Positions 23,901 to 47,200 of a stretch of 64,000 nucleotides of DNA are shown in pieces. The position numbers were made by a program, and so were the translations under genes. Numbering within the stretch: the stretch's first letter is position 1; each line of letters opens with the position of its first letter. The notes beneath the pieces are model-generated. The model had not been told where the DNA came from and did not search any database. It worked only from the letters and a program-made list of their open reading frames with translations. This stretch comes from a virus, in the IMG/VR virus record IMGVR_UViG_3300009370_001603, positions 32,001 through 96,000 of that record; one strand, 5' to 3'.

Positions 23901-26900
23901 TCAGAGACGCTGTGGTTAGCTCCATTTTCTCAGACGCACCAAGTTCTATTCTGGTATGGCCAGACATGGGAACGGGAATCTCTGGATTGACTACTCCGCT
24001 CGCATGACTGTACTCTTTATAGAAATCAACAAAATCGTCCACAACATCTTCATCGCCTAACTGGAAGGCTTTACCAAAGAGTGTACTGTGGCTATTCTCT
24101 TTAAATATACCTACAATTGGCGGTATTCCACTGTGAGGCTCAAAGGCTGTCCAGTCAGTTTTCGGAGGGAACATCTCTCTGAATGCGCCAATAATACCAC
24201 TAAGCATAGAGTTATAGGTATTCCTAGCTCCAAAATTATCTACAAGCTTTTGGTCATCCATTCTTGGGATATAGGTATGTGAGAAGAAATCTTTAAACTC
24301 GTCTGGATGTTTTTTCTTGTCCTTATCGTGATCTGTAAGTTGAAGTATGAGACATTTTACGTTTAAGTTTGGCTGAAATTCATTTGCAGTTTGGGCATTC
24401 CACGGGGCTGAGAAATATTTGTACAGGTGCTCCCATTTCTTACCAACATTTTTTATATATTTTATATTGTCAACATTGTAGGTAAACTTGTCAACAAAGA
24501 CCACCATGCACATTGGGATGCCGGAGGTAGTAATATCTGGGAATCGTCTAGACCAACCGGCGAAAGGTGCTCCAGCAACAATGGTCTCCCTGTCTCCGCT
24601 CTTGGCGATGTCTACCGAGCTTCCAAGCAATCTACCCTCTTGACCTATATTCCATTTTCGTCCAGATATGGTGAATTGATCAAATGTTATTAAGTTTTCA
24701 ACAACTTTGTCTACATAATCTCGCCTAAATCCAGACGGGAGCATTAGCTTATCTTCCATCGTCCAGATAGACTTTTCACCAGCAACATCTTGCCCTCTTC
24801 GATACAAGAACAGCGATCCGGCATCTGGTATGGCATGGCCAGAAGCATCTGGGATTTCTATCTTGGGTGAACCAACAACCATCAGATCGCTGGTAACAGC
24901 AACGGCCTCCCCGTAATTATCAGTTGGGTTTCGTCCGGATATGGGTGTGATGGAAAGATTACCACTTAGATATGGATAGTCGCCAATTAATTTAACACCA
25001 GAGTATACAATGTCAGAATCACAATCTCCATCGCCTTGATCCCCGCCCCTCCAGTTCGGGCCACATATTCCGTATTCCCACTCTTCAAAGTCTCTAGGCA
25101 CTTGAATGGAGTCTGTAGACCCAGTAGTTATTTTAAGGGTAGAGTAATAAGGGGCGTTTGGAATCAAACCAGTATATTTTCTGAAGCCGTAATAGTTCCC
25201 GCTATAGCCAGTCTCTCCGGCAAAGTTTATAGCTCCGGAGTTTGTGTATGTATTGACAGCTCTGAATATACCTCCGTCATTACACGTTTCTGGTCTCCAT
25301 ATTGTTTCGTCGGTCACGAGGGGTGGATCAATGGCTTTTCTTGGACTATCACTATCACATGCTCCATAGCCAATTAAATCAACACCCCTGATTTCGTTTG
25401 AAACCGGTATGGCCGCAATTGAGTTATCTCTTAGTTGGATGCCGGTACCATAATTTTGGTTATACCATCTTAGGTATGTGGAACCTACCCCTCCATAGTT
25501 TGGAACATATAGGTTCATTCCAAGTTGTGAGGCTCCGCCGTCCGACGCTTCGCTTCCGGAGGAGGAATTTGCTTGACTAGTTACTTCGTCGTCTCCGTAT
25601 ACCGTGAGCTTTAGGGTTCCGGAGGTAACAAACTGGTTATTAACTACAACCAGAGGCATTTCAACTTCTGGGGATCTATCTATTAGTTCGGCACCACCCA
25701 ATATATAGACTGGTATCGTGCCCGAATGAGGATGAGGATCACCCGCTAGATTATTCTCTATACGAAGCTGCATCTGCTGGAAAAAGCCCGTGCTATTGCC
25801 AGATGGGGCGTAGGTATACAGAGGTAATTCGCCGCCACTAGGTGTAATTACTAATCCGTCATTAGCAATAGACAGGGGCATCTGCAACGTAGAGATGCCT
25901 TTACCTTTCGTTACCAGATTAAATGTGCCAGAAGCCCCGCTAACAACATTACAACAACCAGCGGTGTGTAGTGGGAATTCCGGGTCAGACGCGATAGCTA
26001 CAGCTACGGTACGTAGTGGTAAAGCCCCATCTTGTCTAAGGGAGCCGCTAACATTCAGCTCAAAACCAGATTCAGGCAATAAGACTGGGCCAAATGTGTT
26101 AAGATTAAGTATGCCACTATCTTTTGGAGCCACCGAAAGCGTATGTAAATCAAGGCTTCCCTTCAAGACATCTGTGCAACCACTAGCATATAGGTTAAAT
26201 ATGCCTGAGTCGGGCGTACACTTCACAAAGGCTTCATCCATTCTGACATGAGCGCTATGAATATCAATATTAGAGTCGAATGCTCCGCCAGACGGATAGA
26301 CCAAATCATATTGCAAGAACATGTCGTCAACATCTTGCGAATAATATTTTTCGGTAAACTCAGTCAGTCTTGGTTCTGCCGGGAATAATGCCCACTGTTC
26401 TGAATCATCAATAAGATTTTGATAATCAAACTTACTATCCAGCCTTACCATATAACTAGAAGGTTGAATGTAATGAATGGACCTGTTAATTAAGCCCCAG
26501 TTGCTTTCATTAGGAGTCCAATAAGGTTCTTTTTTCTTCGTATATAAGCTTACGACTAACCTTGGGCCTTTATAGTGATCTTGGTAAGCGTGTTTATGTT
26601 CATTGCAAAGATGGAAGGTGGTCGGTTTGCACTCTGGCCATTGAATGTCATTATCGGCTCTGTGTTCAAGGACAGTTTCGACAACCAAGGCCTTGTCTTT
26701 AAAGTTGTACCCAATAGGCAGACTCTTAGTTATTCTCTTAGCTACAGAGTGGAAGTTGTCCGACGTGTCGCTTAGGTGGAACCGCAAGAAGTCATTTTCG
26801 ATTTGGGTGTGATAGGAAACGCCGCTACTAATCGTCGAGGGCCAAGAGTTCAACGATAGAGAGCTTTGATTCTCATATGGAATGCCGCTATGTTTCAGGT

Positions 26901-29900
26901 GGAAACTAATTAAATCTTTTCCAGCCCTTTTTGTCCAATGGCTAAAGGCAGAGCTAAATGCATGAGTCTTGAAGTCACCTAACGCCCAGTCTGCTTGAGT
27001 ATCTTCGTTTACGTAGTCCCAGAGCTTGTACGTATCGTTACTGCTAGGCTCTCCCGGCTCAAAGAACTTAACCCTATGATTTTCCAAGAACTTCTGAGCT
27101 GTGACCTGTTTGTATGTCGCGTCAGCATTGGTTTCTACAATGTTGGTTCCTGAGCCATATACGCCACTATTCCAAGTAGAGATTCCAAATTCGGTCAGTA
27201 GCATATTCATTCCAACGCCAGAACCGTCAGAGTGACCAACGATTAAATTTGCACTATTAGTATGCTTTGTAAACTTACTAGAAGATGCTCTAAGTGTAGT
27301 CCAAACGCCGGAGTGGAATTCATTATCAGTATATAGTTTTAGCTTCTCGCTCTCATGATCATTATATGTGAGTATAACAGACAGTGGGTATTGATATCCG
27401 CTATACTTTACAGTGTCTTGAACAGAGACCAATGTTCCGTCTGTGGCTTTAGCGTAACCGCATAAGTAGCCGTCTTTATAACCAAGGGCGAAATCCATGT
27501 CTGATGGCGTAGTCCATTTAGAGAAAAGTACGCCAGAGCTAAATAAATCATAAGTTGTTCCCGACACATCTATATCTGGTGTGAATCTCGTGAAGATAGA
27601 GAATCCTCCAGAGGCGTCAATATTACCAAAATTAACGTTCTGATTATGGCCAGATATTCTTACAACGTTATCAAGAGCATCGGCAATCATACCATATAAT
27701 TCATGGTCTTCAAAATTGTGTGCCGGGGAGGTGGAAGACAATGCCGTCCAGTCTGTTGTTTTGTAGCTACTGGTGTGATTAGGTGCTTTTGTACTAAATA
27801 TATTCTGAGTCTTAAATCTCCACCCGACATTCTTGTAAATCTCAGGCGTGGAATTAAATAGTCCACTTACTCCACCAAAGCCTGCTCCCAGCGATCTAGA
27901 TTGAACATATTTTCCATCCATGTAGTCAAAGTTATAGAAACCGGACAGAAGGGGGAATTCAAGTAAAGGATTATAAAATCCAAAGCCAAACGCATCAGTA
28001 TCGTATGGACCCTGAACGGTCCCCTCTAACCCCCTCCACCTTCTAGAGTAATTAGATTTAATGCTAGAGGGGGTGCTATAGGCATGTGGAATATTAGTTA
28101 TAGTTGAAAGCGGGCCATATCCAGAACCGGCATTTATTATGCTGTCATTACCCTGCTTTGTGGACGGGAAGATTTTACCTTCAGATCTTCCGTCTTGTAT
28201 TTTATCAAAACACTCTCCACCCTGAATCTCAAGTTGTAGCGCGGCCTGTGGGGCATATCTAACCAGTAGATGGGCGCTGGCAATAGCGGCTCCGCTGGGG
28301 AGTGGGTATATGTCTAAATACAAATGTTCAAGCATAGAGCTGACATTGTAATTTCTGGAAAGCCCGATCTCTACATCATCTTTGTATACCTTTAGTGGTA
28401 CTTCATAGTCAGCAAAATCTGTTGTATTAACTATTGGATATCTTGTCAGGGAATAATGGTCTCCCCCTAAGTTGCCGCTTGTCTCTAAATATTTTTCCCT
28501 CTCAGATATACTTCTGGTAGATAACGCTAAATCGTCATCGTTGTCATAGTATCCAGATATAACAGGGTGAGTGCCCTCGCTGGTTATGATCTCCCCATTA
28601 ATCTGGACTGATGACGGGTTCTGTAAAAATCCGCTTGGAGCTTTTGTGATATTGAGGAGTTTGTCGTCGCTCCACCCAACAATGTCTAGCACATAGTCTC
28701 GGGAATCTGCTGCCTTCTTTGCCTTTACCTTTAGTGTAATAGACTCTATGGCCAAGAAGTTATTATCAAATCCAGCTTCAACTTTTCTTTCTGTTTGAAA
28801 TGCTCCGCTCGGGTGGAACCAAATTGGGCAAGTGTTTTGATCAAACTCGCACCCAAATGCTCCCCGCCTGATCTCATTAACAGGCCCGTGGCCATAGCCA
28901 AACTTTACAATCATCTTGCCAGAATCAAAATGAGGCCCAGTACTGTGCAGCTCGGCATAATCTAAGGTAGAATCAGTCTGCAATGCCTTGACAATCTGTT
29001 CAGAACCACATGTGTCCAAGTTATTACCAAGAATGCTAGAACTACCATCGTACATTGGCTTGTTCTTATGCTGCCACACACTACTTACTGCTGGGAAAAT
29101 TCCACTATTACTTGCGTCAGCTAAGGCAAAGAACGACGGTAAGATTTTCTTTTCCAGTCTTCTCCCGTTTCGCGGAGTGTCTAGAAAGAGATTAAAATAG
29201 TCCTCTCGTCTTGGTCCAGTGTATGAACTCAGCCAGTCCCCACCGCTGTTACAAATTTCTATAGCAGAGATTCTTATGCTTTTAGTTGGATTAATTAAAG
29301 ACTGGCCTTGCGTTGATAGCGGAGCACCGTCCAATGCTAGGTAATCATCATCATCCGCAACGGTCGTGTGCATTACATAGTCTTCTTCAAACCCTTCGTC
29401 AAATCCGGGGTCAAACGCATCGTCTCTCGGTGTAACCTTTACCTCGAAAGAGAGTTGATAACCAGTGATTTGATGTGTGTGCGGTTGGTCACGACGCTCC
29501 CAGTCATACTGGTCTGCAAACTTATTTGTAATTGGTTTTAAAGAATATGTAGCATAGTTAACAAGAGTTTTATCGTTACTATAGTCTACATCGCCAAGAA
29601 TGTTTATATCTTCATACTGAACCATCGCGTTCCCGGATGGGTCGGAAAAGGTAACGTTCTTAATCGTATAAAGCGGGGCTATTTTGGATTCATAGTTAGC
29701 CATCGGGGCAGATGCTCTAATCCGCAGTCTTGTCTGATCCGGCCTAATGTGGAAATCAGTTAACTCACTCTTGTACTGGAAATTGCCCTCAGTATGGTAG
29801 CCACTGGGGTGAATAAAAGAATTGGCGTCGTCGGCCAAAAGGACGCTTTGGCTAAAGGGGGTGTGATAATCCCCGGTAAAAACACCCTCATCTATAAATG

Positions 29901-30738
29901 TATAAAGATTTTGTTTTTCATTGGACGGACCAACGAACTGTTGCATCCCGGAATCAAGATCTAGATCTCCGCTAGGATAAAGCTTTTCTACGCATTTATA
30001 ATCACCAAAGCTCCCGGCGAACTTGTCGAGATACGTTGGCATCAACGAGGAGGAAGTTTCAGCCTTCTGTTTGATGCTATAACTAGCGGTCATAACGCCG
30101 CTTGCGATCTCCCCGATAGCTGTGAGACCCGCGAGCATCCCGACTCTTCCGGATATCTTACCGTTAATCCCTGCTATACCATCTAATTCGGACTTTACCC
30201 CACGCGCCACTATCATGATGGGGTTAGACTGTGTTGTGTATTTTAGAGTTGCTATACAGGTATACCCAACCAATGAGTCGCAAATGTTTATTGGCGAAGG
30301 GTCGTTTACATCTTGATCTAATGAGTATTCTATGTCAAGAATATTTACCTTAACACCATTGGATAGGGTCTTCAATCCAATATATTCGTATACAATGTAC
30401 TCGTAGGCCCCACTATCATTTGTTAGTACAACGGTGTCGCCAATTAATGGGGGTGCCGCTTCAAATGTTTCGGACAGAATTACATAAATTCTATATATTG
30501 GCCCCTTTGAGTCAACTTCAAGGTTGGAACCGGGAGGGGGTGTTACGCGATAGCGGAACTCTTTGTCAACTACGCTTTTTGGAGAAGATAGCTTTCCATA
30601 GCCATAGGATCTAGAAGTTCTTAGGTTAGATGTGCCACTCATCTTAGCTTTAAAAACGCCACCTTGCGCGTCCACATTCTTAGCCGTGGCGTCTTTTACG
30701 CATAAGCACTCTAAGTTCTTGACATTTATATGCGACAT
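17956..30738 (-). CDS. Giant virion/adhesin-like protein (4260 aa) with LamG-like domain, seven FG-GAP repeats and GldG/DUF4350-like inserts
   Basis: Seven 'FGxSVxI...xVGAP'-type repeats; 'GGFSIFTRFTP...LKLYTD' LamG-like; directly follows the tape measure. Confidence 0.7.
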   Translation of the reverse strand: MSHINVKNLECLCVKDATAKNVDAQGGVFKAKMSGTSNLRTSRSYGYGKLSSPKSVVDKEFRYRVTPPPGSNLEVDSKGPIYRIYVILSETFEAAPPLIGDTVVLTNDSGAYEYIVYEYIGLKTLSNGVKVNILDIEYSLDQDVNDPSPINICDSLVGYTCIATLKYTTQSNPIMIVARGVKSELDGIAGINGKISGRVGMLAGLTAIGEIASGVMTASYSIKQKAETSSSLMPTYLDKFAGSFGDYKCVEKLYPSGDLDLDSGMQQFVGPSNEKQNLYTFIDEGVFTGDYHTPFSQSVLLADDANSFIHPSGYHTEGNFQYKSELTDFHIRPDQTRLRIRASAPMANYESKIAPLYTIKNVTFSDPSGNAMVQYEDINILGDVDYSNDKTLVNYATYSLKPITNKFADQYDWERRDQPHTHQITGYQLSFEVKVTPRDDAFDPGFDEGFEEDYVMHTTVADDDDYLALDGAPLSTQGQSLINPTKSIRISAIEICNSGGDWLSSYTGPRREDYFNLFLDTPRNGRRLEKKILPSFFALADASNSGIFPAVSSVWQHKNKPMYDGSSSILGNNLDTCGSEQIVKALQTDSTLDYAELHSTGPHFDSGKMIVKFGYGHGPVNEIRRGAFGCEFDQNTCPIWFHPSGAFQTERKVEAGFDNNFLAIESITLKVKAKKAADSRDYVLDIVGWSDDKLLNITKAPSGFLQNPSSVQINGEIITSEGTHPVISGYYDNDDDLALSTRSISEREKYLETSGNLGGDHYSLTRYPIVNTTDFADYEVPLKVYKDDVEIGLSRNYNVSSMLEHLYLDIYPLPSGAAIASAHLLVRYAPQAALQLEIQGGECFDKIQDGRSEGKIFPSTKQGNDSIINAGSGYGPLSTITNIPHAYSTPSSIKSNYSRRWRGLEGTVQGPYDTDAFGFGFYNPLLEFPLLSGFYNFDYMDGKYVQSRSLGAGFGGVSGLFNSTPEIYKNVGWRFKTQNIFSTKAPNHTSSYKTTDWTALSSTSPAHNFEDHELYGMIADALDNVVRISGHNQNVNFGNIDASGGFSIFTRFTPDIDVSGTTYDLFSSGVLFSKWTTPSDMDFALGYKDGYLCGYAKATDGTLVSVQDTVKYSGYQYPLSVILTYNDHESEKLKLYTDNEFHSGVWTTLRASSSKFTKHTNSANLIVGHSDGSGVGMNMLLTEFGISTWNSGVYGSGTNIVETNADATYKQVTAQKFLENHRVKFFEPGEPSSNDTYKLWDYVNEDTQADWALGDFKTHAFSSAFSHWTKRAGKDLISFHLKHSGIPYENQSSLSLNSWPSTISSGVSYHTQIENDFLRFHLSDTSDNFHSVAKRITKSLPIGYNFKDKALVVETVLEHRADNDIQWPECKPTTFHLCNEHKHAYQDHYKGPRLVVSLYTKKKEPYWTPNESNWGLINRSIHYIQPSSYMVRLDSKFDYQNLIDDSEQWALFPAEPRLTEFTEKYYSQDVDDMFLQYDLVYPSGGAFDSNIDIHSAHVRMDEAFVKCTPDSGIFNLYASGCTDVLKGSLDLHTLSVAPKDSGILNLNTFGPVLLPESGFELNVSGSLRQDGALPLRTVAVAIASDPEFPLHTAGCCNVVSGASGTFNLVTKGKGISTLQMPLSIANDGLVITPSGGELPLYTYAPSGNSTGFFQQMQLRIENNLAGDPHPHSGTIPVYILGGAELIDRSPEVEMPLVVVNNQFVTSGTLKLTVYGDDEVTSQANSSSGSEASDGGASQLGMNLYVPNYGGVGSTYLRWYNQNYGTGIQLRDNSIAAIPVSNEIRGVDLIGYGACDSDSPRKAIDPPLVTDETIWRPETCNDGGIFRAVNTYTNSGAINFAGETGYSGNYYGFRKYTGLIPNAPYYSTLKITTGSTDSIQVPRDFEEWEYGICGPNWRGGDQGDGDCDSDIVYSGVKLIGDYPYLSGNLSITPISGRNPTDNYGEAVAVTSDLMVVGSPKIEIPDASGHAIPDAGSLFLYRRGQDVAGEKSIWTMEDKLMLPSGFRRDYVDKVVENLITFDQFTISGRKWNIGQEGRLLGSSVDIAKSGDRETIVAGAPFAGWSRRFPDITTSGIPMCMVVFVDKFTYNVDNIKYIKNVGKKWEHLYKYFSAPWNAQTANEFQPNLNVKCLILQLTDHDKDKKKHPDEFKDFFSHTYIPRMDDQKLVDNFGARNTYNSMLSGIIGAFREMFPPKTDWTAFEPHSGIPPIVGIFKENSHSTLFGKAFQLGDEDVVDDFVDFYKEYSHASGVVNPEIPVPMSGHTRIELGASEKMELTTASLINNTLNSGYLIDNNIENTPYPILSFITSGVGQKWAKSNAAEFQIPPSSGGRVFVFEKESGTFNCVQEIIPYSERQVNEENEQDAPDDFLGFGKQYNDRFGHSVAISKNSDVISVGSPWTYVPCEIFERQDAENQRMYNKIRDWLVYRNLEIPLARYDALVLEHGADYAKKQTYHELSQTNKLWLRTDKNFWDGIGKGTNGHGLPIELYKPIFNYKYGDITTTGTWQFIQGEFLGSSRLGYSTSVDDDGITVAFGAPTDSTTMFEDSNVWYNRGAKEATFASYTNAGAVRMFEAKQYVSHSGAVEFTRFGNLDRSVHHELREAGFYDRMGNYFQPDNIPFTRLPFSTIEIPRNAGLAFIITPELDAASDEIIDNIKNWLALGDRTLVLVGNDPLYEEDGLYRESNDIVNKILKRLGSRMKIEAADTEYESLPECISETDVFGNRWNVTKSFVPENAYTDTYESKHAAPNMFAKGVGKIVYDVSDLGLEDLFVSSPCDEDNQTVCNLPIKHLGDLRAQWNVTCAKDNGMPHKYKMNWPFHFTNSDKSGPIGSPCRNYPSSPKPLINRPWEDVVPILTAAEWTPDQHWFRPEETICETVCDPIWEFFTIPQFYKECKFATHQLDTLAFSVSGDFTGQSIGENIEYWRLSDNKGGFINPDPKNGRDAILQGIGDVKEKVTVVDKRVLLDKKSTLMVEEPYLYKNDEGETVDGNNRVFILASVNGENERSFTDSLGGDDIGGNSDQNIVFYVNTVRKSCEEAGRLVQLGGWTKRTSFKDAYEFSVIKEKLTAFGINVTENEVYGPGVDIDGTEAVDTVWIANPDGMPTDDDISVLKNWLKNGNKKLFITYAGWHRENRQGLAENVSVLLEKLGLKSRPWLRPCKGDYFVQTNKIVDEGNRQDCCPYAPEDTDTILQKLELDSDVFAGCLHGYAWDKNYNSQERTSVQKVSLRHSPDHECDEKDIFNGEDCGWDEGDLFDFIPISGGGDYKNLIWYDTPELHSQWQGVYDICPEVNKENLWYLDCKASGQFPVNPGSGYRVFVNWVSETKNEIYGTFGVAENVFEANAPCAWDGTFPQPPCDCHGIIEMTDENVAPQRNLRNGCWYNEDFHDCGTCDPNEECGNCRLGATTVGNVQQSYVDVKADQTGKLRIIFDTDIYKEQIWVEQCDEAGGKGHDPANGYPQTARILSISGCPLPLEEEILNKPKEGKRIIGWDCREECETIPAEEGVIPGVFRPIMHRSEEYCNPANPPCPPPKDETCCAPRGDEEIEDGPIVAAEEYEHFTNGANGFERSKIVVLTDSTMIQGQCKHYRNDSVGENQFFIRSLYPVSPHERKEFGGRGFDVTTSDKVFQFTQKLRAPERGSAPKYYAAKGVANTLFPLYGANGDGTVDEFVDNEDTYHPANDVGRPADPSTPKQIDIEIKYFGGSVYPDYGGYPRFSGDFLNQLPTNYVVDGVEKDFLVDAGSEGGVNDLMKVAEGRDFLDFDSYNSGCPGDLFGFSVDLTNNKLIVGTPFNGLVTENVASGISGIVQWHEIENDPFRSGVVVSQNGGAGAAFYFEKTGSGKNVVNERLPWEFRQKIKPSSINIGLDGATISTLQTIKGDHHLNNDFALNNGGRTDKFGYSVAIDADMIAIGAPHHDYETLHEHIYSGAVVTNDLNTAFQRKSFGAEFDIPSHKFYDLGSSGIRVDYFDTDSGTMVLNHGAVFNYRHSITDWQARTKEWVYAEKLFSHGYHARSGSIYIGDNLTSSGCENDSFGRSVSIFRSERGDSDYTLAVGSPFHDHATSGNHHSSGVTDAGAAFTYDAMLRGQIPSIPNSGSWIDVKIFGAKTDDGQNMLLDRVYQNETGDPITHETSGIVFSNAYGDLYIEASGFDPSIKGFVTHRPFVECVIGDFVGGESANGSLNLITSGKPVDVSGHMSLMLSGAPSAYVYNSMNLRTFGASGVVSDSGLPLIVTVASGSSNQSLNLNVTSTQTTDNLNLRLRGK

Positions 30739-30756: not shown

Positions 30757-33700
30757 CTACGAAGGCAACGTTGATTCAGAACGCGCGCTACCACCGCCCT
30801 CGGTGTTTTTCCATTTTGGAATTTCCTGAGCGACAGCATCTAGGGTAGCACTCATTATTTTTTCATCTATAACCTTTAATATGTTATCATTAAGAAGTCT
30901 TACGTTTACATCTACTGGCTTATTGACCGTTACACCAATTTCCATCTTACCCAGTGATGTTACAGCGTCTGAGAATCCGTCAAATATGGATCTAAGGTCG
31001 CCAACGGTTTCAACAAATCCGCCCATCTGCTTGACCATATCTCCAAACTGATAGTATCCCACGGTGCCTCCTGAAGACATGGCGGCAGCGCCAGCTGGCC
31101 CAGCGTTCACAGTAGACCCATTACCATTCATGGCCCTCAAGAGTTGTAGGTTATTACCACGCTGCACCGCTGCTCTGTTAACGACAAACTCTCCGGGAGT
31201 CAACATGGCGGGTACAGTATCTGTGCCTCTTGGTACGAATATACCTCTACTTGCGTATACCATTCCCCCTTTAGATAGTGGTAAACCCGCATCGGCGCGT
31301 TCTTGCTTTTTACCGGCCCGTTCCATCTCTTCTTTAAATTTAATCTCGGCTCGTTCAATCGTAAGCTCTGCGTTGGCAATTTCCATCATGGCACTATCTG
31401 CCATCATCTGGCTGACCTGACCACCGGCGGCGGCGAGCGCTTGCCCTTTATTTCTTAACGCATTTAGTTCCTCTGTAGTTCCTGTTAGTACTTGTCCAGC
31501 TCTTTCATCTAAGCCAACGGACGAAGCAGCAATTTCACCTGCACGCTGTAGCGTTGCCGTATCTGCACCCTCTGCTTTCAACAGCTTAATCCCCTCCGCC
31601 ATAGCCTGCGGACTAAACATTCCAGCCATTTCAGCATCGCCAGTTCTTAGGGCGGATGCTGCTCCGGCTGCGGCCTGTTGATCTAAAAAGCCACCTATGT
31701 CTCCACTGAGTAATTTATCAATAGAAGATTGTTCTAATGAATTTCTCTTCTCGATAATCGCTATTTGATCTTTAGTCGCCTGAATTTGTGCCTGAATAAA
31801 TCCAACCAAGTCTTTCATTGACTGATTGGTTTCTTTAATCCTGTCAGCGTCTATACCTTGAGTATCCTGAAATCCACCAGTGGCCCTATCAATTTGCTGC
31901 TGGTTCATACGGCTTTGAATATTAGATGCTACGCTTTGTATATCAGCCACGCTACCAGTTCTTAGTTGCTGAACTCCAGCGTCTTTAGCCCCAAGATTAA
32001 ACTTAGCTAAGTTGGCAGAAAGCTTTTGATCTGCGGTTAATTTAGCGCCACCAAATTCTTCAAACGTTTTAGCGAACTGTAGTTGTGCATCAATAGCCTG
32101 TCTTTGTACCGCTATGTATTGAAGTTCTGCCTGTCTTCTTATCGTTGTTAGCTTTGTTATTGTTTGCTCGTGTTTCAATAACGCCTTGGCTGCCTTTAGG
32201 GCGCCGTCCCTCATCGGTCCCAAGCCCTTAGTTATCTCAGCAATCAACGCGGAGGCATCTTTACCTCTAATGTCGCCCATCGCAGCGATTTGTCCCTGTA
32301 TGGACGCTCTGATATCAGCATCTTTAACCCCGGCTAATAGGGCAGATTCTAATGATTGCTTTGCGGCGGCTTCAGTGCCCTGATTAAGATCCAAGTTACT
32401 AACGCGGCTCTGTACAGATGCCATAAATTTATTTGCGGCATCGGCTCTAGAGAACTGACGATTTACAGCTTTACCTTGAGCTGTTGTTTCATCGCCACCA
32501 GCCGCAACTTTTATTATCCGTTGCCTTATACTCTCTAGCGCAGCAGACCCTTCACCGCCCATACCCATATTTGATGAGGCAGTCTCAACTGTGGCAATGG
32601 AATCTGCCAGTGTGGAAGAGCCGGTTTTTAGCGAATTTAAGAATTGGTCAACACCAAGATTTGCTTTATTAAATGCAGACATTACTTTGAGATTATCAAA
32701 GTTAGCCTTGGCTAAAGCTCTTTGAGCTTCTGCAACATTAAAGGCTGTTCTGGCCATTCGCTCAAGTTGATCTTTAGTATAGGCAGTCTTGTTACCCAAA
32801 GAGGCAAGGCCTTTCTGGAGATCTGCCATTGAGCCTGCCGTTGAGCCGAGCGATGTAACGAATTTCTTTTCGCCCTCTTTGAGGCTCTTCTCAACTTCCA
32901 TTCGTGTTTTTTCGTCAGCTTTAACGCCACTCTTTGTCGTCTTGTCGAGTTCGGCTAGGGCATCTCTGGAAGAACTTCCAATGACCTCACCAAGCTGGCT
33001 CATGTCTGTGACTTTGCCCTCATCCAAGGCCTGAAAAGCCAGTTCATTACGGACGCGAGCGCCTTCGCCAGCTGCTCGGGCGCCCTTGTTTTGTACATCT
33101 TGGGCCATACGTTTCCGCATCCCCTCGGGGTCTTGGAACATTTCTATCATTCCGCCTAGCGTAAACATTCGGCCCATTCCTTCGGCCACAGCGCCCGCTC
33201 TGGCGTGTTTGGCTGCCCCCGAAACATCACCCTTACCAACAGCTTGCTCAGACTTTCTTTGGGAAATCTCCGAAAGTGCGCTCGCAAGCATTTGGGCCGC
33301 CATTCCGGCCATCATCCCTACGCCACCAATCCCGGACCCCATGCTCATGGCTCGGCCACCCATCCTTCTCCCCAAGCCGGGGCCACCGGCGCCGCCGCCG
33401 CCCATGCCAGCCATCTTCATCCGCTTCATGTCTTTAGTAACCTTCTTGACGGCCATGTCGGCGCCTAGGGTTTCTTTTTTGAGCCTGCTAGTGTTTCGAG
33501 TCAGATGTTGTGTTGTTACGGTCGCCCTTCTCTTGGTCGAAGCCCCGAGATTTTCGGCATTGGCCTGCGCCATGATCTCCTTTTTCTGCCTCCGGGCGGC
33601 TCGGCCAGACTTAGTCATCCAGCCAGTGAGCGCTGAGAATGTGCGGGAGAGCACAGAACTCTCTTTCCCTGCTTGTCTAGCTGTGATACTGTTTATTTGT

Positions 33701-36700
33701 TGAGTGCGATTCAGATTCCTTTGTCTGCCCTCCAGTATTCTGGTGGATTGAACAAGCCGCTTCCCTGCGGTAGTTACTTTATCAAAGAGTCCAGCCTGTT
33801 TTGTTTGAAGATTGGATAACTTCCTTTGTGAACCCGCCAGCTTGTTGTTGGCAGAATCGCTCTTCCTCTTCGTCCTGTCTAACTTAACATCACTCGCCTT
33901 CACCTTTTCATTTGCTTGGACTAACTTGCTGGCAGTGGTTATCCTCGTTTTCGTGGCTTTATCAATCCGAGCATCACTCTTTGCGAATGCAGCCGCAAGG
34001 TCTTTATTGGCACCCTGAACATCTTTTACTTTTTTATTAGCTTTTGTTAACTCTTTAGTCGCGCCCCTCTGGACTTGCTTTGATTTCCTTAGAGCTTTAG
34101 CTGCATCAACCGTCTTTTTCTTTTGGTCTGCGGTGGCCTTTGAATTTTTATTCCTTGCATTCTTTAGTTCGTGCTCTCTCTGTTCAAGCTTATTGATTGA
34201 CGCCTCGGTTTTTTTGCGTTCATCGGACCCCTTCTCTTGGGTCATGGCCTTTTTCTCTAAGTTTTGCCTGTTCTCCTTATGCCCCGCTAGATCTTTATCT
34301 ATCTTCGCATTCTTCTTCGCTTCGCTTGCTTCCGCACCTTCAAGCAAGTTCTTTTCTTTGTTGAGCTTGCCTTGGTCTTTTCTCACTTGCTCGTCCGCCG
34401 CCGTTTTGTCGAGTCCTGCTCGTGCTGATTCGCCCGATGCCGCCATACTCTCTTTGTCAGTGTTTATTTGTTGTTCTTTGAGTGATTCCCTCTCGGCGTG
34501 AGCCGATTTTTGTTCAGCCGCCGCCGCATTATCATCAGTCTGTGCGGTTATTCGCTCATTGTGCGCATCTTGATTCATTTCCCGTTCTACATCGAGATCT
34601 TTTTTCTTCTGATCGGCGTTGGCTTGCTTACCAGCGACCTCCTCTTTTTGAGTGTCAATAGCCGTCTGCCCCGCCGACTCTGCTTCTTGAGCAGCTTTAA
34701 ACTCTTCTTTGGAAGCCGCCTGTTGATTCTCTGCTCTTTCAAGTTTTTTCTGCTCTTTAGCTTCTTTTGCCGCACCTTCCTTCAGCTTTGCGTCTTGTTC
34801 TGCTTCAGCTTGCGCTTTGGCTGATTGGGAAGGCTTCTGCTCTTCAGCATCCACCTTGGCGTCCTTCTTGGCTTCTCCCGCATCCTTCTTGTCTTCTGCC
34901 GCCTCCTTCTTGGTTTCGCCATCTTCCGATCCACCCTCTTCCTTCCCTTTTCCTGCTGCTATCTCCCGACCTTTCTCTATACCCTTCATCGTCAGCATGA
35001 ACACCACTCCAGCCGACATTAGTAGTTGACTGGCTTTTTCACCAGCAACGGCCATTGCGAATTGTGAGTCAGTAGCTTCTTTAGACTTATCTCCTAAGTT
35101 CTGGAGAGCGGTCGATGCCGCTCCAGCAATAATTGAGAGATTCATCAGGCCCATACCGCCGCCGCCGCCGACACCCCCGCCTCCTGCGAACTTCTGAATA
35201 CCAACTGCGCCACCGGCGTTAAATCCAGTAACGCCTCTTTTGTTCATTCGGTTAAGACTCGCGTAACCAATGCGTTGGGCAGATTTTTTATTAACTACAA
35301 ATTCGCCCGGAGTAAGAAGGGCGGGTACGGTGTCTCTACCAGATATGCCACCACCGCCAGCTTTCTTTTTGGGTGAGGCCAAGCCACTAGCGTAGAATTC
35401 ATCGGCAATTTGATTCGCAACTTTGGTCCTAAAGTTAGCCTTGCTCGCTTCTTTATAGCTAGTCTTGGCGTCAACCCAAGATCCGGGGAGGCCAGAGAAG
35501 TTATCAGCTAGGGCGCCGCCAATACCGCCGGGGAAATCAAATGGAGAGCTAACTTGATCTGCTCTAAATTTACCCTTACCATCTAAAACAGAAACCGCCG
35601 CCTCAAACGCATTGCCCATTGGTGCTCCGCGTTTTGCCATGTGGCCAATAAACTCTTGCTTAGAAGCGTCGTCTAATTTTTGAGCACCTATACCAAGGTC
35701 TGCACCAAGTGCCGCCGTAGCATGATCTAATCCCACAGCCATTCCATCGAGAATGTTTTTCTTAAAGCTATCAGAAGTTTTCTTGTTTAATCCTTTTCTG
35801 GTGAGTGAGTATTTTCTACCATTGAAGAATTGACTGAGGTTCTTTTGTGCTAACTTGTCTGCTTTTAATCTTCTATTGTTCTTAACGTTTGCTTGACTAA
35901 TATTTCCAAGATCTACCTTGCTCTTCTCTGGCTCGTCTGGATCTAAGATGGCGGCACCGACCCTTGTGGTGCCAACAATACCGCCAGCAGCAAATTTCCC
36001 AATTCTGAGTCTACCCTTTTTATCGAGGGCTTTAGCTAGTACCTTGTCTTTGCCTGCTGCTTTTTTCGACGCGGCAGTTAACTGAACAGGTGTTATGTCT
36101 TGGTATAGCCACGCTTGACCTAAATCAAATTTATTGGCCGCGTCAGTTAGTCTAGCTTCGGTCAGCTTGGGCACAACTTTTCTGTCGATACTACTCATGG
36201 GGCTGAGAGCCGCCCCGATCATCTTATCGCCAATGTTCTTTTCTAGATCTCTTGCTGATTGTTTCTCATAACTCTTGATTTCTACCAGTTTGTTGCCATC
36301 CATAGCATCCATTCTTGAGCTACCACCGGCGGTTTTTGCTATACCGAGGGAATTCAGCAAACCTTCAAATGCTAAACCTCTTGCTTGGTGTTTCCTATTA
36401 GCGGCTAGCTTTTGGTATTTATTGAATTTCGCCGTCAGGCCTTTGTCTGCCTCTATTCTCTTTTTGTACTGATTAAGATTAATGCCTCTTTTCTGTAGGT
36501 CTAGCGAGAATGAATCGTCTTCATTGAATCTGGTGGCTCCGGAACCTCTGACTGGGGCCGTGTTGAATTTCTTGCCTTTACCTTTATAGAAGGTTTCATC
36601 TTCATATTTTACATAGCCCTTTGAAGAGGGAAAACTAGAAACCTGTCCACCAGCAGCATATTTGTTCATGCCTGCAAGCCGTCCAGCACCAAGCTTTCTA

Positions 36701-38166
36701 ACGCTACTCTTGCGTATTACAAACTCTCCCGGCTGAAGCATTGCGGGAACAGTGTCACGATTACCTGTGCCGGGAACCATGCCACCCCTAGCCATTGCCA
36801 TAACCCTTCCACCCTCAGCTTTGGCGGAAAGACCTTTGAGTGCTCCTGCGGCCCCCTTGCCGAACGAAGACATGGCGCCAGCAAACTTAAATGCGGCAAA
36901 AGCACCAATTAGGGGTATCAATGGTTTTAGAGCTTCGCCAACTTTGATTAATGCACTAGCTAAGTTCAGCGCGGTTTTAACCATCACCTGAAAAGAGGTG
37001 GTTTCAGTAAGACCACGAACCAAGGCAAGAAATTCTTCTTTGGTCTTTTGTATTTGTACGGCTAAGGCCTGCTGTGCAGTAGCGGCATCTTTATCAAGAC
37101 TTGAAGCTCCAGCTATAGCTGCCTGTCTAGCCCTCTCTGCCAATTCAAATTCTTGCAGTAAGGGAATGACCTTACCAATCTGTCGGAAGCCACCAAGCTG
37201 TTCAGCGATCTGAATAAACTTTACATCGCCCGCTGGCACATCTCCAAGTGCCTTGCTCAATCTCTTTACGGCCTCCATCGGGCCTACAAAGTTACCCTGC
37301 ATATCAGTAAGGCTAATACCTAACTCTTTTAGGTACTGAAGGGTAGTTGGTCTCTGAATACGTGTAAGAATGGTACGTAAACCAGTAGCAATAGACTCTG
37401 CGCTTTCACGAGTCGTTGCACGAATAGATGTGAACAAACCTAAGAATTCATTCAGGTCGCCACCAGCGGCTTTAAAGACACCACCAGTACGGCGAATAGC
37501 GCCAATAAGGTCTCCGGACTCAACGGCAAACTGTCCAGCAACAGCATTAATGGCACCAAGCTGCTCTTTTAGTTTACCAACACCTTGGCCAAACTGGGCT
37601 AAAATGGCAACAGCGCCTTCAGCCGTCTTGTTGATATCCTCAAATGTAGGAGCAAGGGTGGTCTTAGCCAGAGCTTCTAACGCAACTTTCAGATCAGTAG
37701 CTTGAATACCAGCTTGAGCTAGAATTCTAGTAGCATTCAGTAACTCTTTAGAAGAAGTACCTAGAGATACAGAGAGATTGGTAATCTCCTTACTAAGCCC
37801 TTTAAGATCTTTTACGCTCTTGCCGGTAACCTGCGAGATTTTTACAAGTTCTCGCTGAAAGTCAATCGCTTCATCAACGGCGCCCGCGATAGTGTTAGTA
37901 AAAAGACTAACGGCCCTACTGGCAACAGTAAAGGCGGCAAACCTCTTTAGGGCTAACCCAAAAGATCTACCCATATCTTGAGCGGCACCCGCCGCTTCCT
38001 TGGTAGCGGTAGTGACCTGCTTGATTTGCTTAGTTGCTTTTGAGGCACCGGTAACCTTAACAGGTACAGACAAACCCTTGAGCTGTGACCTCATTTGGTT
38101 CACAACTTGGCTGGTGTTGGTCGGTGCCTGTAGTTTTAACTGTGCAGTCAGTACAAATTTAGACAT
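30757..38166 (-). CDS. Tail tape measure protein (TP901-type core) with inserted domains
   Basis: N-terminal 'FQRELVKISQV...LLNATRILAQAG...IATGLRTILTRI' core; long Ala/Lys/Gln helical regions; three 'DTVPAxLxPGEFV' motifs; follows tube and chaperones. Confidence 0.92.
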   Translation of the reverse strand: MSKFVLTAQLKLQAPTNTSQVVNQMRSQLKGLSVPVKVTGASKATKQIKQVTTATKEAAGAAQDMGRSFGLALKRFAAFTVASRAVSLFTNTIAGAVDEAIDFQRELVKISQVTGKSVKDLKGLSKEITNLSVSLGTSSKELLNATRILAQAGIQATDLKVALEALAKTTLAPTFEDINKTAEGAVAILAQFGQGVGKLKEQLGAINAVAGQFAVESGDLIGAIRRTGGVFKAAGGDLNEFLGLFTSIRATTRESAESIATGLRTILTRIQRPTTLQYLKELGISLTDMQGNFVGPMEAVKRLSKALGDVPAGDVKFIQIAEQLGGFRQIGKVIPLLQEFELAERARQAAIAGASSLDKDAATAQQALAVQIQKTKEEFLALVRGLTETTSFQVMVKTALNLASALIKVGEALKPLIPLIGAFAAFKFAGAMSSFGKGAAGALKGLSAKAEGGRVMAMARGGMVPGTGNRDTVPAMLQPGEFVIRKSSVRKLGAGRLAGMNKYAAGGQVSSFPSSKGYVKYEDETFYKGKGKKFNTAPVRGSGATRFNEDDSFSLDLQKRGINLNQYKKRIEADKGLTAKFNKYQKLAANRKHQARGLAFEGLLNSLGIAKTAGGSSRMDAMDGNKLVEIKSYEKQSARDLEKNIGDKMIGAALSPMSSIDRKVVPKLTEARLTDAANKFDLGQAWLYQDITPVQLTAASKKAAGKDKVLAKALDKKGRLRIGKFAAGGIVGTTRVGAAILDPDEPEKSKVDLGNISQANVKNNRRLKADKLAQKNLSQFFNGRKYSLTRKGLNKKTSDSFKKNILDGMAVGLDHATAALGADLGIGAQKLDDASKQEFIGHMAKRGAPMGNAFEAAVSVLDGKGKFRADQVSSPFDFPGGIGGALADNFSGLPGSWVDAKTSYKEASKANFRTKVANQIADEFYASGLASPKKKAGGGGISGRDTVPALLTPGEFVVNKKSAQRIGYASLNRMNKRGVTGFNAGGAVGIQKFAGGGGVGGGGGMGLMNLSIIAGAASTALQNLGDKSKEATDSQFAMAVAGEKASQLLMSAGVVFMLTMKGIEKGREIAAGKGKEEGGSEDGETKKEAAEDKKDAGEAKKDAKVDAEEQKPSQSAKAQAEAEQDAKLKEGAAKEAKEQKKLERAENQQAASKEEFKAAQEAESAGQTAIDTQKEEVAGKQANADQKKKDLDVEREMNQDAHNERITAQTDDNAAAAEQKSAHAERESLKEQQINTDKESMAASGESARAGLDKTAADEQVRKDQGKLNKEKNLLEGAEASEAKKNAKIDKDLAGHKENRQNLEKKAMTQEKGSDERKKTEASINKLEQREHELKNARNKNSKATADQKKKTVDAAKALRKSKQVQRGATKELTKANKKVKDVQGANKDLAAAFAKSDARIDKATKTRITTASKLVQANEKVKASDVKLDRTKRKSDSANNKLAGSQRKLSNLQTKQAGLFDKVTTAGKRLVQSTRILEGRQRNLNRTQQINSITARQAGKESSVLSRTFSALTGWMTKSGRAARRQKKEIMAQANAENLGASTKRRATVTTQHLTRNTSRLKKETLGADMAVKKVTKDMKRMKMAGMGGGGAGGPGLGRRMGGRAMSMGSGIGGVGMMAGMAAQMLASALSEISQRKSEQAVGKGDVSGAAKHARAGAVAEGMGRMFTLGGMIEMFQDPEGMRKRMAQDVQNKGARAAGEGARVRNELAFQALDEGKVTDMSQLGEVIGSSSRDALAELDKTTKSGVKADEKTRMEVEKSLKEGEKKFVTSLGSTAGSMADLQKGLASLGNKTAYTKDQLERMARTAFNVAEAQRALAKANFDNLKVMSAFNKANLGVDQFLNSLKTGSSTLADSIATVETASSNMGMGGEGSAALESIRQRIIKVAAGGDETTAQGKAVNRQFSRADAANKFMASVQSRVSNLDLNQGTEAAAKQSLESALLAGVKDADIRASIQGQIAAMGDIRGKDASALIAEITKGLGPMRDGALKAAKALLKHEQTITKLTTIRRQAELQYIAVQRQAIDAQLQFAKTFEEFGGAKLTADQKLSANLAKFNLGAKDAGVQQLRTGSVADIQSVASNIQSRMNQQQIDRATGGFQDTQGIDADRIKETNQSMKDLVGFIQAQIQATKDQIAIIEKRNSLEQSSIDKLLSGDIGGFLDQQAAAGAASALRTGDAEMAGMFSPQAMAEGIKLLKAEGADTATLQRAGEIAASSVGLDERAGQVLTGTTEELNALRNKGQALAAAGGQVSQMMADSAMMEIANAELTIERAEIKFKEEMERAGKKQERADAGLPLSKGGMVYASRGIFVPRGTDTVPAMLTPGEFVVNRAAVQRGNNLQLLRAMNGNGSTVNAGPAGAAAMSSGGTVGYYQFGDMVKQMGGFVETVGDLRSIFDGFSDAVTSLGKMEIGVTVNKPVDVNVRLLNDNILKVIDEKIMSATLDAVAQEIPKWKNTEGGGSARSESTLPS

Positions 38167-44246: not shown

Positions 44247-47200
44247 TTACCACGCATTGAATGTATCAACCATTTTTCGCCACTGTCCGTTTAAGTAAGT
44301 AGCGAGATTATAATTACTTCCACTCTTTACTATACAAACCGTACCTTCTACTCGTGAAATCTCATATTTAGCAATAGTGCTGCTCGAATGCGTATACAAC
44401 TGTCTAGTAGCACCGGTGCCGGTGGTATTTAAAGCTATGGGGAGCTGTAGGAAACCTTCAGCATTAACAATCGTGTTTGCAAAGTCATACTCATCGGTGG
44501 ATGCCTGTATTTGGTCGGCAACCTGATAAGAGCTATACATCGTTGTCTTCAGGCCTGTTTTATCAGTTGAATGGTTTGCCAGTTTTAAAAGGTGGGCACT
44601 GAACTCTGCGGCAGTGGTCGGTTTTTTCCCGATCTGCGTTACCGCATTTGTATTGTGCTGGAAGAAACCCTTTCCGATAGCAACGACGTAATCTTCAGGT
44701 GAGGTACTAACCCACGACGTGTTGTTCGTAGGTGTGTCGTTGTTAAGCACAATCGCACGATTTAATACCTGACCGCCACCAGCGTTGTAGCCGATGAGAG
44801 TATTATAAGCACCACATCCCGATATTCCAGCCTGATAGCCTATCATGATATTATTGCTGTGGACTGTGCTTGAAATTCTACCGTTGTACTGCTTACCGGC
44901 CTCGACCCCAATACTAATTTGACGGGCAATCCCGCTAGAATAAGACCCTGCTTCCATGCCAATGCCAATATGCCTATTATATGATGAAGTCGAATCCTTG
45001 CCTTGAGCATGTCTCCCGGCATAGGGGCCGACGTATGTCGAATAATGCTGCCTATTCGCTTCCTCACCAGCTTTGTAGCCAATGACTGTAGCTTTTTCAG
45101 TTGTGGCCAGTAAGTATCCAGCCATGTGGCCCAGCATAGACGTTTCTTTATTACCGGAGGAATAAGCTCCAGCTCCATATCCTAGAAGCTGATTGTTAGA
45201 TGCATTGTAGCTGTCTTTTCCTGCAAAGTAGCCAATCGCCACGTCGTTCCAGCTTCCATCCAGAGTGTCGGCCATACCGCTCGCGTTCTGCAATGCCTGC
45301 CTTCCGATTCCTACACACCTATTCAGACCACTGGCTTGCTGGCCCGCAGTTTGGCCAATGAAAACGTTACCCTGTGTAAGTGATCCACGCTGATGACCCA
45401 TATAGCCTTGCATAGACTCCCTGCCGATAGCTATATTTTCACTCATCCCATGGCTAGATTCACCAGCCTTGTAGCCCAACATAATATTATGCTTGTCTAG
45501 TACAGCAGATCGACCAGCATAGTAGCCTATCGCAACGCTGTGTACCAGCGAGGAATCGAAAGTATACTGATAGGTTGTCCACCCTGACGACGATACGCCA
45601 GCTCCATAGCCAATATTAACACCCCTGATCCCAGAGGAACCCATACCGGCTTCGTATCCTAGGTTGACAGAGCCGCCCATCCATGCGGAATCTTTCAAAC
45701 TCCTTGTTCCTATAGCAACCGCGTCCGTGTTCCCACTAGAGCTATAACCCGCGAGCGCACCAATGAAATTACCCTGTGTCGCCTTAAAGGAGTACGCACC
45801 AGCAGAATGACCGATGAAGTTAACAATGCCGCTACTTGGTACAGACCCCCCCATGCCAGATTGGGCAACGGCTTGGTATCCAGCTTCACGACCAATGATA
45901 TTTGAGGATGCAAAACCATGCGCTCCGGAACCAGCATAGTCACCGATAAAGTTGGTGTGGTTTGCACCTAAGACTTCTGCGGCAGCATATCTACCCATAG
46001 CATTACTATTGTTAATGCCGCTGCCATATAGTCCTGCTCGATTACCAATCATGTTGGTGTTAGAGCAGCCACTTGCGACACGTCCAGCATGGATACCTAT
46101 AAAGTTAGAATTATCACAGCCGCTCGACTGTAAGCCAGCATCTCTCCCTATAAAGTTAGAGCTTTCAGAGTCGGCGTTGATATATGCTCCGGCGCGAGAG
46201 CCAACGGCCACAACGTAACTATTACCACTAGAAGATGTTCCGGCGTTCGTTCCTATAAAGATACTTTGAATATTACCGCTAGAACTTTGGGCAGCTCCGC
46301 TACCAACCGCAATGGACGCATGACTTCCTCCGAGGGCATTGTGACCCGCAAGCCTTCCGATTGCCATTGCTCCGGAACCAATTGCTCCACTTACGGGACT
46401 AACGTCATCCGCCGTTCTAACTAAGCCGTCACTAAATGTAAGGGCGCTCGTATCAATACTACCCGCCGCAAAGCCAGAAACGGCTGCAATAGCTGTTTTT
46501 GATATTCCAGAAACGGCTGCTCCAGACGAATCTATCTCATACTGTAGATTGCCCGAAGCGAGGCCTGCACTAAAAATTAGGTGGTTACTTGAGGCTGTGT
46601 ATTGGGTGGTAATACCACTTATGCCAGAAATGTTAACGCCTTCTGAGCTACTAATATTGTCAAAATCTGTTAGGCCATCACTTAGTTTCCAGTGTCCATA
46701 ACCGCCGCCTAAGCCGCCAATTTTATCGTTCACATACCCAGAGACTAAATTGACACCGACTTGTAATATACCAGAAGTTGCTTTATCGTGACCAAAAGCG
46801 AACCCAGAAACCGCAGTGATTGCTGTGTTTGCTAAACCAGAGACTGCCGCGCCACTAGCATTTACAACCGCCTCAAGGCCGGAGGCGGAAAATTTCATTA
46901 CATTTGAGCTTGAGTTGTACCCAACGGTTACGTGGTCTACGCCGGAGAAATTAACTGTATTTGTAGAGGCTATAGCATCTGTACCACCCCCAACTCCAAC
47001 TACCCAGTTGGCATAGTCAACAGCAGATCCAATTCTTCCATCAAGATATCCAGATAGTCCATTAGCAGTTACAGCAAATAGGTTGACATCGGAATGATAT
47101 AATACTTCACACCCGCTAGCCCCGCTTATAAACACAGTATCTGCTGAGGATATAGTTTCGGGGGGATTCGTCGTGCCGTCACTAACCTTGAAAGAGTAAT

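Follow-up and report, generated by a model that had tools for sequence, protein, structure and literature searches.

In the window analysed here, 64,000 nucleotides from a virus (IMG/VR virus record IMGVR_UViG_3300009370_001603, positions 32,001 to 96,000), the reverse strand carries the gene of a tape measure protein (TMP) in which two small nuclease-like domains, designated D1 and D2, follow the tape-measure core. The record is linear, comprises 122,518 bases, is estimated to be 73% complete and derives from an uncultured phage. We consider it somewhat likely, at a probability of about 60%, that D1 and D2 are exchangeable nuclease-like cargo cassettes of the TMP, delivered as ready-made nucleic-acid enzymes; their delivery, activity and target are what we infer. 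The block of amino acids (aa) ~455-1000, which lies between the TP901-type core and the long, presumably helical ruler, would then probably be an exchangeable cargo block.

D1 (aa 508-724) and D2 (aa 730-935) are basic and cysteine-free, with isoelectric points (pI) of 9.95 and 9.70, and no cysteine occurs among the 2469 residues of the TMP. Both were predicted to be mixed alpha/beta globular domains and not one long helix, in agreement with an earlier reading of the same DNA from the sequence alone (hereafter the sequence-only reading), which had described two basic globular segments. Its coordinates and motif strings for both segments were exact, including the joints YAAGG and FAAGG that precede D1 and D2. 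Joints of this kind, defined by the regular expression [FYL][ANSVT]xG[GD], occur six times in the window TMP, as against a mean of 1.7 in 1000 shuffled sequences. As boundaries the (F/Y)AAGG joints stood, and the picture was corrected in one respect: the D1-D2 pair is also bracketed by two modules of ~45 aa with the consensus 'DTVPAxLxPGEFV' (DTVPA at aa 471 and 945), of which a third copy lies at aa 2316. With a strict regular expression, one to five such modules were counted in the relatives, and no Pfam model matched the module. The module also matches a 'bacteriophage-related transmembrane protein' of the Synechococcus phages S-SM2 and SynMITS9220M01, with 48-54% identity over ~50-60 aa.

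Both domains carry the ordered residues E ... (P)D ... (D/E)xK of PD-(D/E)XK nucleases, and in both these residues are conserved among relatives. The motif string of D1, 'RGLAFEGLL...RMDAMDGNKLVEIKS', contains E601, D620 and E629-I-K631, with G597-x-x-F600-E601 around the first glutamate and a spacing of 9 residues from D620 to E629; the codons of E601, D620, E629, K631 and K648 lie at 36364-36366, 36307-36309, 36280-36282, 36274-36276 and 36223-36225, respectively. In D2, the string 'MGNAFEAAV...SSPFDF...WVDAKTS' provides E855, D877 and D899-A-K901 within G851-x-x-F854-E855, P875-F876-D877 and the following strand; here the codons of E855, D877, D899, K901 and K915 lie at 35602-35604, 35536-35538, 35470-35472, 35464-35466 and 35422-35424.

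Relatives were obtained in two ways. A word-indexed search with aa 503-940 picked out 36 proteins, 1421-3791 aa long, from 8000 scored candidates, and PF10145 is present in almost all of them. A profile search that used no index and covered cluster representatives of all lengths, 1.84 billion in number, yielded 165 matches at E<=1e-3, of which 127 reached E<=1e-10 and 45 reached E<=1e-30 (listed were the best 150 of the 165 matches). Judged by sequence, the D1/D2 domain family is narrow yet real. Over the D1-D2 region the relatives share about 26-40% identity with the window TMP. Residues were counted with domain hidden Markov models (HMMs) built from the 30- and 36-sequence alignments and run on all stored proteins; the counts leave out P0002, which is identical to the window TMP, P0090 and any match covering less than 70% of the HMM. 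Among 64 D1-type domains, F600 was kept in 63, E601 in 62 (Gln in two), D620 and E629 in all, and K631 and K648 in 63 each. Among 117 D2-type domains, E855 was kept in 116, D877 in all, D899 in 112 (Glu in four, Tyr in one), K901 in 105 and K915 in 115. In the 30-sequence alignment of segments at position 1, the slot held by D1 in the window TMP, E601 was present in 30/30 and D620 in 29/30, and in the 36-sequence alignment of D2 the residues E855, F876, D877, D899 and K915 were present in 36/36 and K901 in 29/36, the others having Arg. The spacing G-x-AFE / D / (E/D)xK, which had been noticed in both segments, thus consists of residues that are near-invariant in the family. As this acidic/acidic/acidic-x-Lys pattern is near-invariant at only ~26-40% identity, it must be under strong selection. 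When the window was compared with the two relatives closest to it, the ratio of nonsynonymous to synonymous substitutions (dN/dS) was 0.165 and 0.178 for D1 and 0.121 and 0.089 for D2; both domains are under purifying selection.

The fold of D1 was investigated in a two-domain AlphaFold2 (AF2) model of aa 501-945 (445 residues, 18-sequence alignment), which had a mean predicted local distance difference test score (pLDDT) of 77.5, with both domain cores at 85-91. D1 was modelled as a strand (552-562) followed by three helices, the last of which (593-607) bears E601, then a strand (621-623) right after D620, a strand (626-631) with E629 and K631, a helix (638-654) with K648 and a strand (679-690). 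In the model, the order of these elements is that expected of a minimal PD-(D/E)XK core. A Foldseek search of the PDB with the two-domain model gave no row at E<=1e-3; the weak rows for D1 include the Pichinde and Lassa cap-snatching endonucleases, BamHI, PvuII, Cas4 SSO0001, MGME1 and DrdV. In BFVD, the weak rows were headed by a Cas4-like DUF83 protein (E 0.3), followed by Holliday junction resolvases, endonucleases and a RecU-type protein. All structural matches to D1 were weak and all were nucleases, which we take to be members of the PD-(D/E)XK class, and the weakness of the signal is partly due to the use of the 445-residue two-domain model as the query. The VIA wide structure search with the same model was filled by the helical hairpin of D2 (model residues 294-362) and was uninformative on D1. 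In the ESM Atlas, the D1 core had Tox-REase-7 (PF15649) as its top cluster, with a score of 0.89, and the ten best named matches all share a family or clan. With the PF15649 profile itself, neither D1 nor any of the 18 members of alignment A1 gave a match, even when E values as high as 10 were allowed. The Pfam model Toxin_R_bind_C was found in D1 with E 0.004 (17 bits, against a cut-off of 25) and was taken as a chance match. Taken together, D1 probably has a restriction-endonuclease fold, the signal being consistent but weak, and it is probably a minimal PD-(D/E)XK nuclease-like domain with an intact E601 / D620 / E629-x-K631 / K648 site.

D2 folded alone (AF2, 23-sequence alignment) reached a pLDDT of 84.3 and a predicted template modelling score (pTM) of 0.77. 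The model contains three strands at the N-terminus as well as three long helices, and E855 lies on the third helix; the other catalytic-type residues lie in a loop with PFD877, in a short strand with D899-x-K901 and in a final helix with K915. When this model was compared with the PDB by Foldseek, no row below E 1.7 and no nucleases were obtained, and the PDB and VIA wide searches together returned no restriction-endonuclease-fold chain for D2 alone, an absence that is not evidence of a differing fold. The sequence-only reading had assigned the restriction-endonuclease fold to both segments and had proposed a structure search on each. The assignment is made probable for D1 by the predicted topology and the weak, nuclease-only matches, and is not confirmed for D2, whose confident model drew no such match; the search itself found no solved nuclease for D2 alone and weak nuclease rows only for D1, which was searched within the two-domain model.

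The two domains can be related to each other only by profiles, since BLASTP of D1 against D2 gave nothing. A first profile comparison was inflated by shared linker motifs, and the linkers were trimmed for the hhalign comparison reported here. The D1 and D2 families then aligned over 54 columns with a score of 32.0 (P 2.6e-4), with GxxFE, the Asp, (E/D)xK and the later Lys in register; the best of 30 column-shuffled D2 profiles scored 18.2 and the reversed profile 12.9. Seven relatives carry at position 1 a 'GxxFE ... PFD ... DAK' domain that bridges D1 and D2, with a probability of 87.7% to D2 (score 43.4; shuffles <=19.5) and of 55% to D1. The link of D2 to the restriction-endonuclease fold comes from the motifs and from the modest profile alignment to D1. 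The simplest reading is that the C-terminal half of D2 is a diverged copy of a D1-type catalytic core set in a new N-terminal scaffold; D2 as a nuclease-like domain is unproven.

The architecture of the region was tallied in 180 stored proteins, 139 of them long (>=1300 aa) and 41 short, the short ones probably being fragments. The commonest arrangement was D2 only (45 long, 31 short), followed among the long proteins by D1-D2 (25 long, two short), D1 only (19 long, 24 short) and D2-like-D2 (12 long, two short). Duplications were seen as D2-D2 (four long) and D1-D1 (two long), with no short protein of either kind. An alternative, SNase-like cassette preceded D2 in four long proteins and one short protein and stood before D2-D2 in one long protein and no short one. 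Six long proteins and one short protein had none of these domains, and one long protein, P0090, with no short counterpart, contained 22 partial D2-type matches. The 36 position-1 segments, 140-435 aa in length, fell into a linked cluster of 30, a second type of five and one singleton. A joint motif was found at most 60 aa upstream in 136 of 151 domain instances, where 0.17 would be expected per 61-aa stretch; by type, this was the case for 42/46 D1, 80/89 D2, 9/11 D2-like and 5/5 alternative domains. In the viral contig L006, DTVPA module 1 runs straight into D2.

Comparison along the gene showed the same joints as sites of exchange. Nucleotide identity to relative L002 was 70-89% over aa 1-480, 86-98% over aa 481-1000 and 47-63% beyond; identity to both L002 and L009 jumps at copy 1 of the DTVPA module and drops from ~91% to ~63% after aa 1000. 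Against L010, the core and D2 showed 67-84% nucleotide identity and D1 only 41-52%, with changes at ~aa 481-520 and ~aa 720, which are the joints, the D1 allele having been replaced between them. The synonymous divergence (dS) was 0.24-0.29 in D1 versus ~1.5 in the TMP core; in L009 it was 0.24 for D1 and 0.95 for D2, and these two domains have different histories in that relative. Recombination breakpoints sit at the joints. The expectation that the cassettes are swappable and that the content between joints varies agrees with both the mixed architectures and the identity jumps. The charged ruler (aa 1060-1700) has only 45-46% protein identity to the closest relatives, with dS saturated, as against 86-94% for the D1-D2 block, which is therefore the most conserved, or the most recently shared, part of the gene.

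Six relatives carry at position 1 a cassette that is absent from the window TMP and has an invariant DGD ... R..G.DAYE pattern ('DGD[ST]...RxxGxDAYE'), which resembles the SNase motif. Pfam SNase (PF00565) matched two of five scanned cassettes below its cut-off of 21 bits (E 0.0085 and 0.018, 16-17 bits), and phmmer with the sixth cassette against the PDB gave nothing. That this slot also houses a second type of nuclease is no more than a lead; if so, selection at position 1 would act on nuclease function and not on one fold.

Other arrangements were observed in individual relatives. L004, which has the same sequence as L013, contains in aa 454-1463 of its open frame six xAxGG joints (aa 534, 722, 954, 1108, 1179 and 1250) and several modules ahead of D2; one of these is of D1 type, and two or more segments, 70-190 aa long, are of no recognised kind. 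P0037 (aa 576-793) and L005 (aa ~575-735) have in common a third kind of position-1 cassette, which had no family match. In P0090 (4551 aa), 22 stretches match positions 275-346 of the A1 profile, which are the helical hairpin of D2, and the protein looks like a long tandem array of this hairpin.

Table 1. Features of the tape measure protein gene, numbered by position in the window
Feature	Position	Strand	Residues	Basis and remarks
TMP gene	30757..38166	-	2469 aa	open reading frame list and translation; PHROG matches
TP901-type tape-measure core	36832..38115	-	aa 18-445	PF10145 at aa 126-326 and PHROG matches
'DTVPAxLxPGEFV' module copy 1	36661..36804	-	aa ~455-502 (DTVPA at aa 471)	regular expression and phmmer
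Joint YAAGG	36646..36660	-	aa 503-507	
D1, PD-(D/E)XK-like domain	35995..36645	-	aa 508-724	residues, conservation, AF2 topology, weak structure matches
Joint FAAGG	35980..35994	-	aa 725-729	within conserved 'GGLIQKFAxGG' linker of relatives
D2, lineage-specific domain with E/PFD/DxK/K site	35362..35979	-	aa 730-935	conservation, AF2 model, profile alignment to D1
'DTVPAxLxPGEFV' module copy 2	35224..35361	-	aa 936-981 (DTVPA at aa 945)	regular expression and phmmer
Joints FNAGG and FAGGG	35176..35223	-	aa 982-986 and 993-997	end of exchanged block
'DTVPAxLxPGEFV' module copy 3	31132..31284	-	DTVPA at aa 2316	regular expression and phmmer

That the protein bearing D1 and D2 is a tape measure, as had been read from the sequence, was supported by PF10145 (PhageMin_Tail, Phage-related minor tail protein), which matched with E 3.4e-26 and 92.8 bits (cut-off 33.2) when aa 1-460 were scanned alone and was not matched when the full 2469-aa protein was scanned against Pfam. 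PHROG tape-measure families matched aa 18-445, phrog_4211 with E 1.2e-24. By these family matches it is a real TP901-type tape measure. Its ruler part includes a long charged stretch (aa 1060-1700), and hydrophobic windows lie at aa 415-435 and 1613-1631. A search at the DNA level found no similar phage record, and protein-level phage matches were distant and confined to the TMP core and the DTVPA module.

The gene is followed, 18 bases past its end, by an open reading frame (ORF) of 4260 aa (17956-30738, reverse strand) without a PHROG match at E<=1e-3, which presumably encodes a giant distal tail or baseplate protein. Two other ORFs on the same strand matched PHROGs of a tail spike (44247-49148, 4.1e-6) and a tail fibre (49168-50169, 3.4e-5), the sole other family matches near the TMP gene. 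The other ORFs scanned between 38202 and 43996 (PHROG, Pfam) showed no significant family except one PHROG of unknown function (E 1.3e-4), and no tail sheath family was found in the record.

Tape measures of other phages occupy the lumen of the tail and exit from it at infection. If the window TMP behaves as other tape measures do, it would exit the tail ahead of the DNA, and D1 and D2 would reach the host as ready-made metal-dependent phosphodiesterases. There, ahead of all phage gene expression, they might cleave the nucleic acid of the host or of a competitor, or might process nucleic acid at the point of entry. Through the conserved joints, phages would be able to swap enzyme modules by homologous recombination. 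Double-glycine sites are cleaved in other systems, and the joints might likewise be protease cleavage sites. A wider version of this proposal is offered only tentatively. The TMP could be a polymorphic-effector scaffold in ~165 clusters (50% identity), with the joints and DTVPA modules as cassette ends and possibly processing sites; nucleases with various folds, of restriction-enzyme, SNase and other types, would be swapped and would be injected before the genome itself, so as to cut the DNA of the host or of competitors or to disable defence systems based on nucleic acids. D2, which is the module found most widely, would then be a nuclease whose PD-(D/E)XK-like site is set in a scaffold not seen before.

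Several results weigh against the proposal that D1 and D2 are delivered nucleases. No Pfam, NCBIfam, PADLOC or PDB-sequence family matches either domain, the PDB having been searched by single sequence and by profile. The ESM Atlas score of D1 falls below the 0.9 line of the tool, and no usable match for D2 was obtained there. The hhalign probability between the two families was only 42%, and K901 is replaced by Arg in 12 of the 117 D2 domains. Among proteins of 102-384 aa, no stand-alone relative of D1 was found, the one match being a fragment of 185 aa, so that no characterised homologue anchors the function. The passage of folded domains of 200 aa through the tail lumen and their arrival in the cytoplasm are also open to doubt.

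Three other explanations were weighed. D1 and D2 could be DNA-handling parts of the injection machine, which lie near the head-proximal end of the TMP and grip or process the leading end of the phage's own genome so that the exit of the TMP draws the DNA through tail and membrane, with the metal site serving for binding or end-trimming. In siphophages the genome end sits in the head-proximal part of the tail. The high pI of both domains, their location in the N-proximal third directly after the TMP core and the presence of D2 in most relatives (36/36 of the word-indexed set, D2 only being the commonest architecture) would suit such a role. D2 is not universal, however, as 19 long relatives have D1 only and six have neither domain, and position 1 is freely replaced, duplicated or absent, which fits accessory cargo better. 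The near-invariant Glu/Asp/Lys set is, moreover, a catalytic pattern and not merely a binding surface, and we regard this explanation as unlikely.

That the domains, and D2 above all, are enzymes other than nucleases, hydrolysing another phosphoester or an envelope component during penetration, seems distinctly unlikely. D2 lacks both a nuclease structure match and a family match, and tape measures with envelope-degrading motifs are established, as reported for mycobacteriophage TM4 (PMC1796659). The core of D2, however, aligns motif for motif with D1, which draws nuclease matches only; the cassette that takes the place of D1 in some relatives has an SNase-like look, and no peptidoglycan-hydrolase family was matched in the Pfam scans. 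Least probable, in our view, is a catalytically inert role of D1 and D2 in structure or assembly, for instance as spacers, plugs or sites for chaperone binding; the conserved residues would then stabilise the fold, and the likeness to nucleases would be ancestral only. Inactive PD-(D/E)XK derivatives are common, neither domain has a significant match to any active nuclease family, and K901 is Arg in some D2 domains. Nevertheless, the charges at catalytic positions are kept in 62-64/64 D1 and 112-117/117 D2 domains (K901 aside) despite the low identity, dN/dS is 0.09-0.18, and the presence, absence and replacement of modules speak against a role needed for tail assembly. Delivery of D1 and D2 as exchangeable nuclease-like cargo remains the preferred reading.

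The closest known parallel is gp96 of Thermus phage P23-45, described as a TMP fused to a virion RNA polymerase that transcribes the pre-early genes (Chaban et al. 2024, PMC10770324). In both cases a nucleic-acid enzyme, putative here, lies near the N-terminal part of a giant TMP; it is, or here would be, delivered together with what the tail contains, and acts, or would act, ahead of phage gene expression. The putative cargo described here, in contrast, consists of two small nuclease-like domains and not of an RNA polymerase; they follow the TP901-type core and do not form the N-terminus, and they are fenced by joints and exchanged between relatives. The tape measure of mycobacteriophage TM4, which has a peptidoglycan-hydrolase motif (PMC1796659), is alike in containing small functional motifs or domains that act during infection; whereas that motif targets the cell wall, the residues found here are of nuclease type and no cell-wall hydrolase family was matched. 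With minimal PD-(D/E)XK nucleases D1 shares the order E ... D ... ExK ... K on a predicted beta-hairpin flanked by helices. Its weak structural aligners comprise Cas4 SSO0001 (4ic1), arenavirus cap-snatching endonucleases (4i1t, 5izh, 7ela), EndoMS/NucS (5gke), MGME1 (5zyv), HamA (8vxy) and Hjc-type resolvases (BFVD). The polymorphic-toxin domain Tox-REase-7 (PF15649) is, as D1 probably is, a small restriction-endonuclease-fold module; it sits where a large protein that serves for delivery has a conserved junction, and it is swapped between relatives. Here, however, hmmscan gave no PF15649 match, and the carrier is a phage tape measure and not a secreted bacterial toxin. SNIPE (10.1101/2025.11.03.685801), a host nuclease reported to associate with tape measures, was judged not relevant here. 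Literature searches aimed at nuclease domains inside tape measure proteins, supplementary files aside, found no description of such domains.

TMP-embedded cell-wall hydrolase motifs and, recently, one RNA polymerase were already known; a TMP family with interchangeable nuclease-like modules at fixed joints would point to something broader. D2 is a good target for structure determination, because it is confidently modelled, strongly conserved and without a structural match, and the joints may be of practical use as natural sites at which to insert cargo into a tape measure. The system would also provide a testable entry to the fate of host DNA or host defence before phage gene expression, and to the travel of folded domains through the tail. 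If the proposal is true, the lumen of the tail would serve generally as a path by which pre-made nucleic-acid enzymes are delivered right at the start of infection, and the cargo of tape measures would be diversified by phages much as polymorphic toxins are by bacteria.

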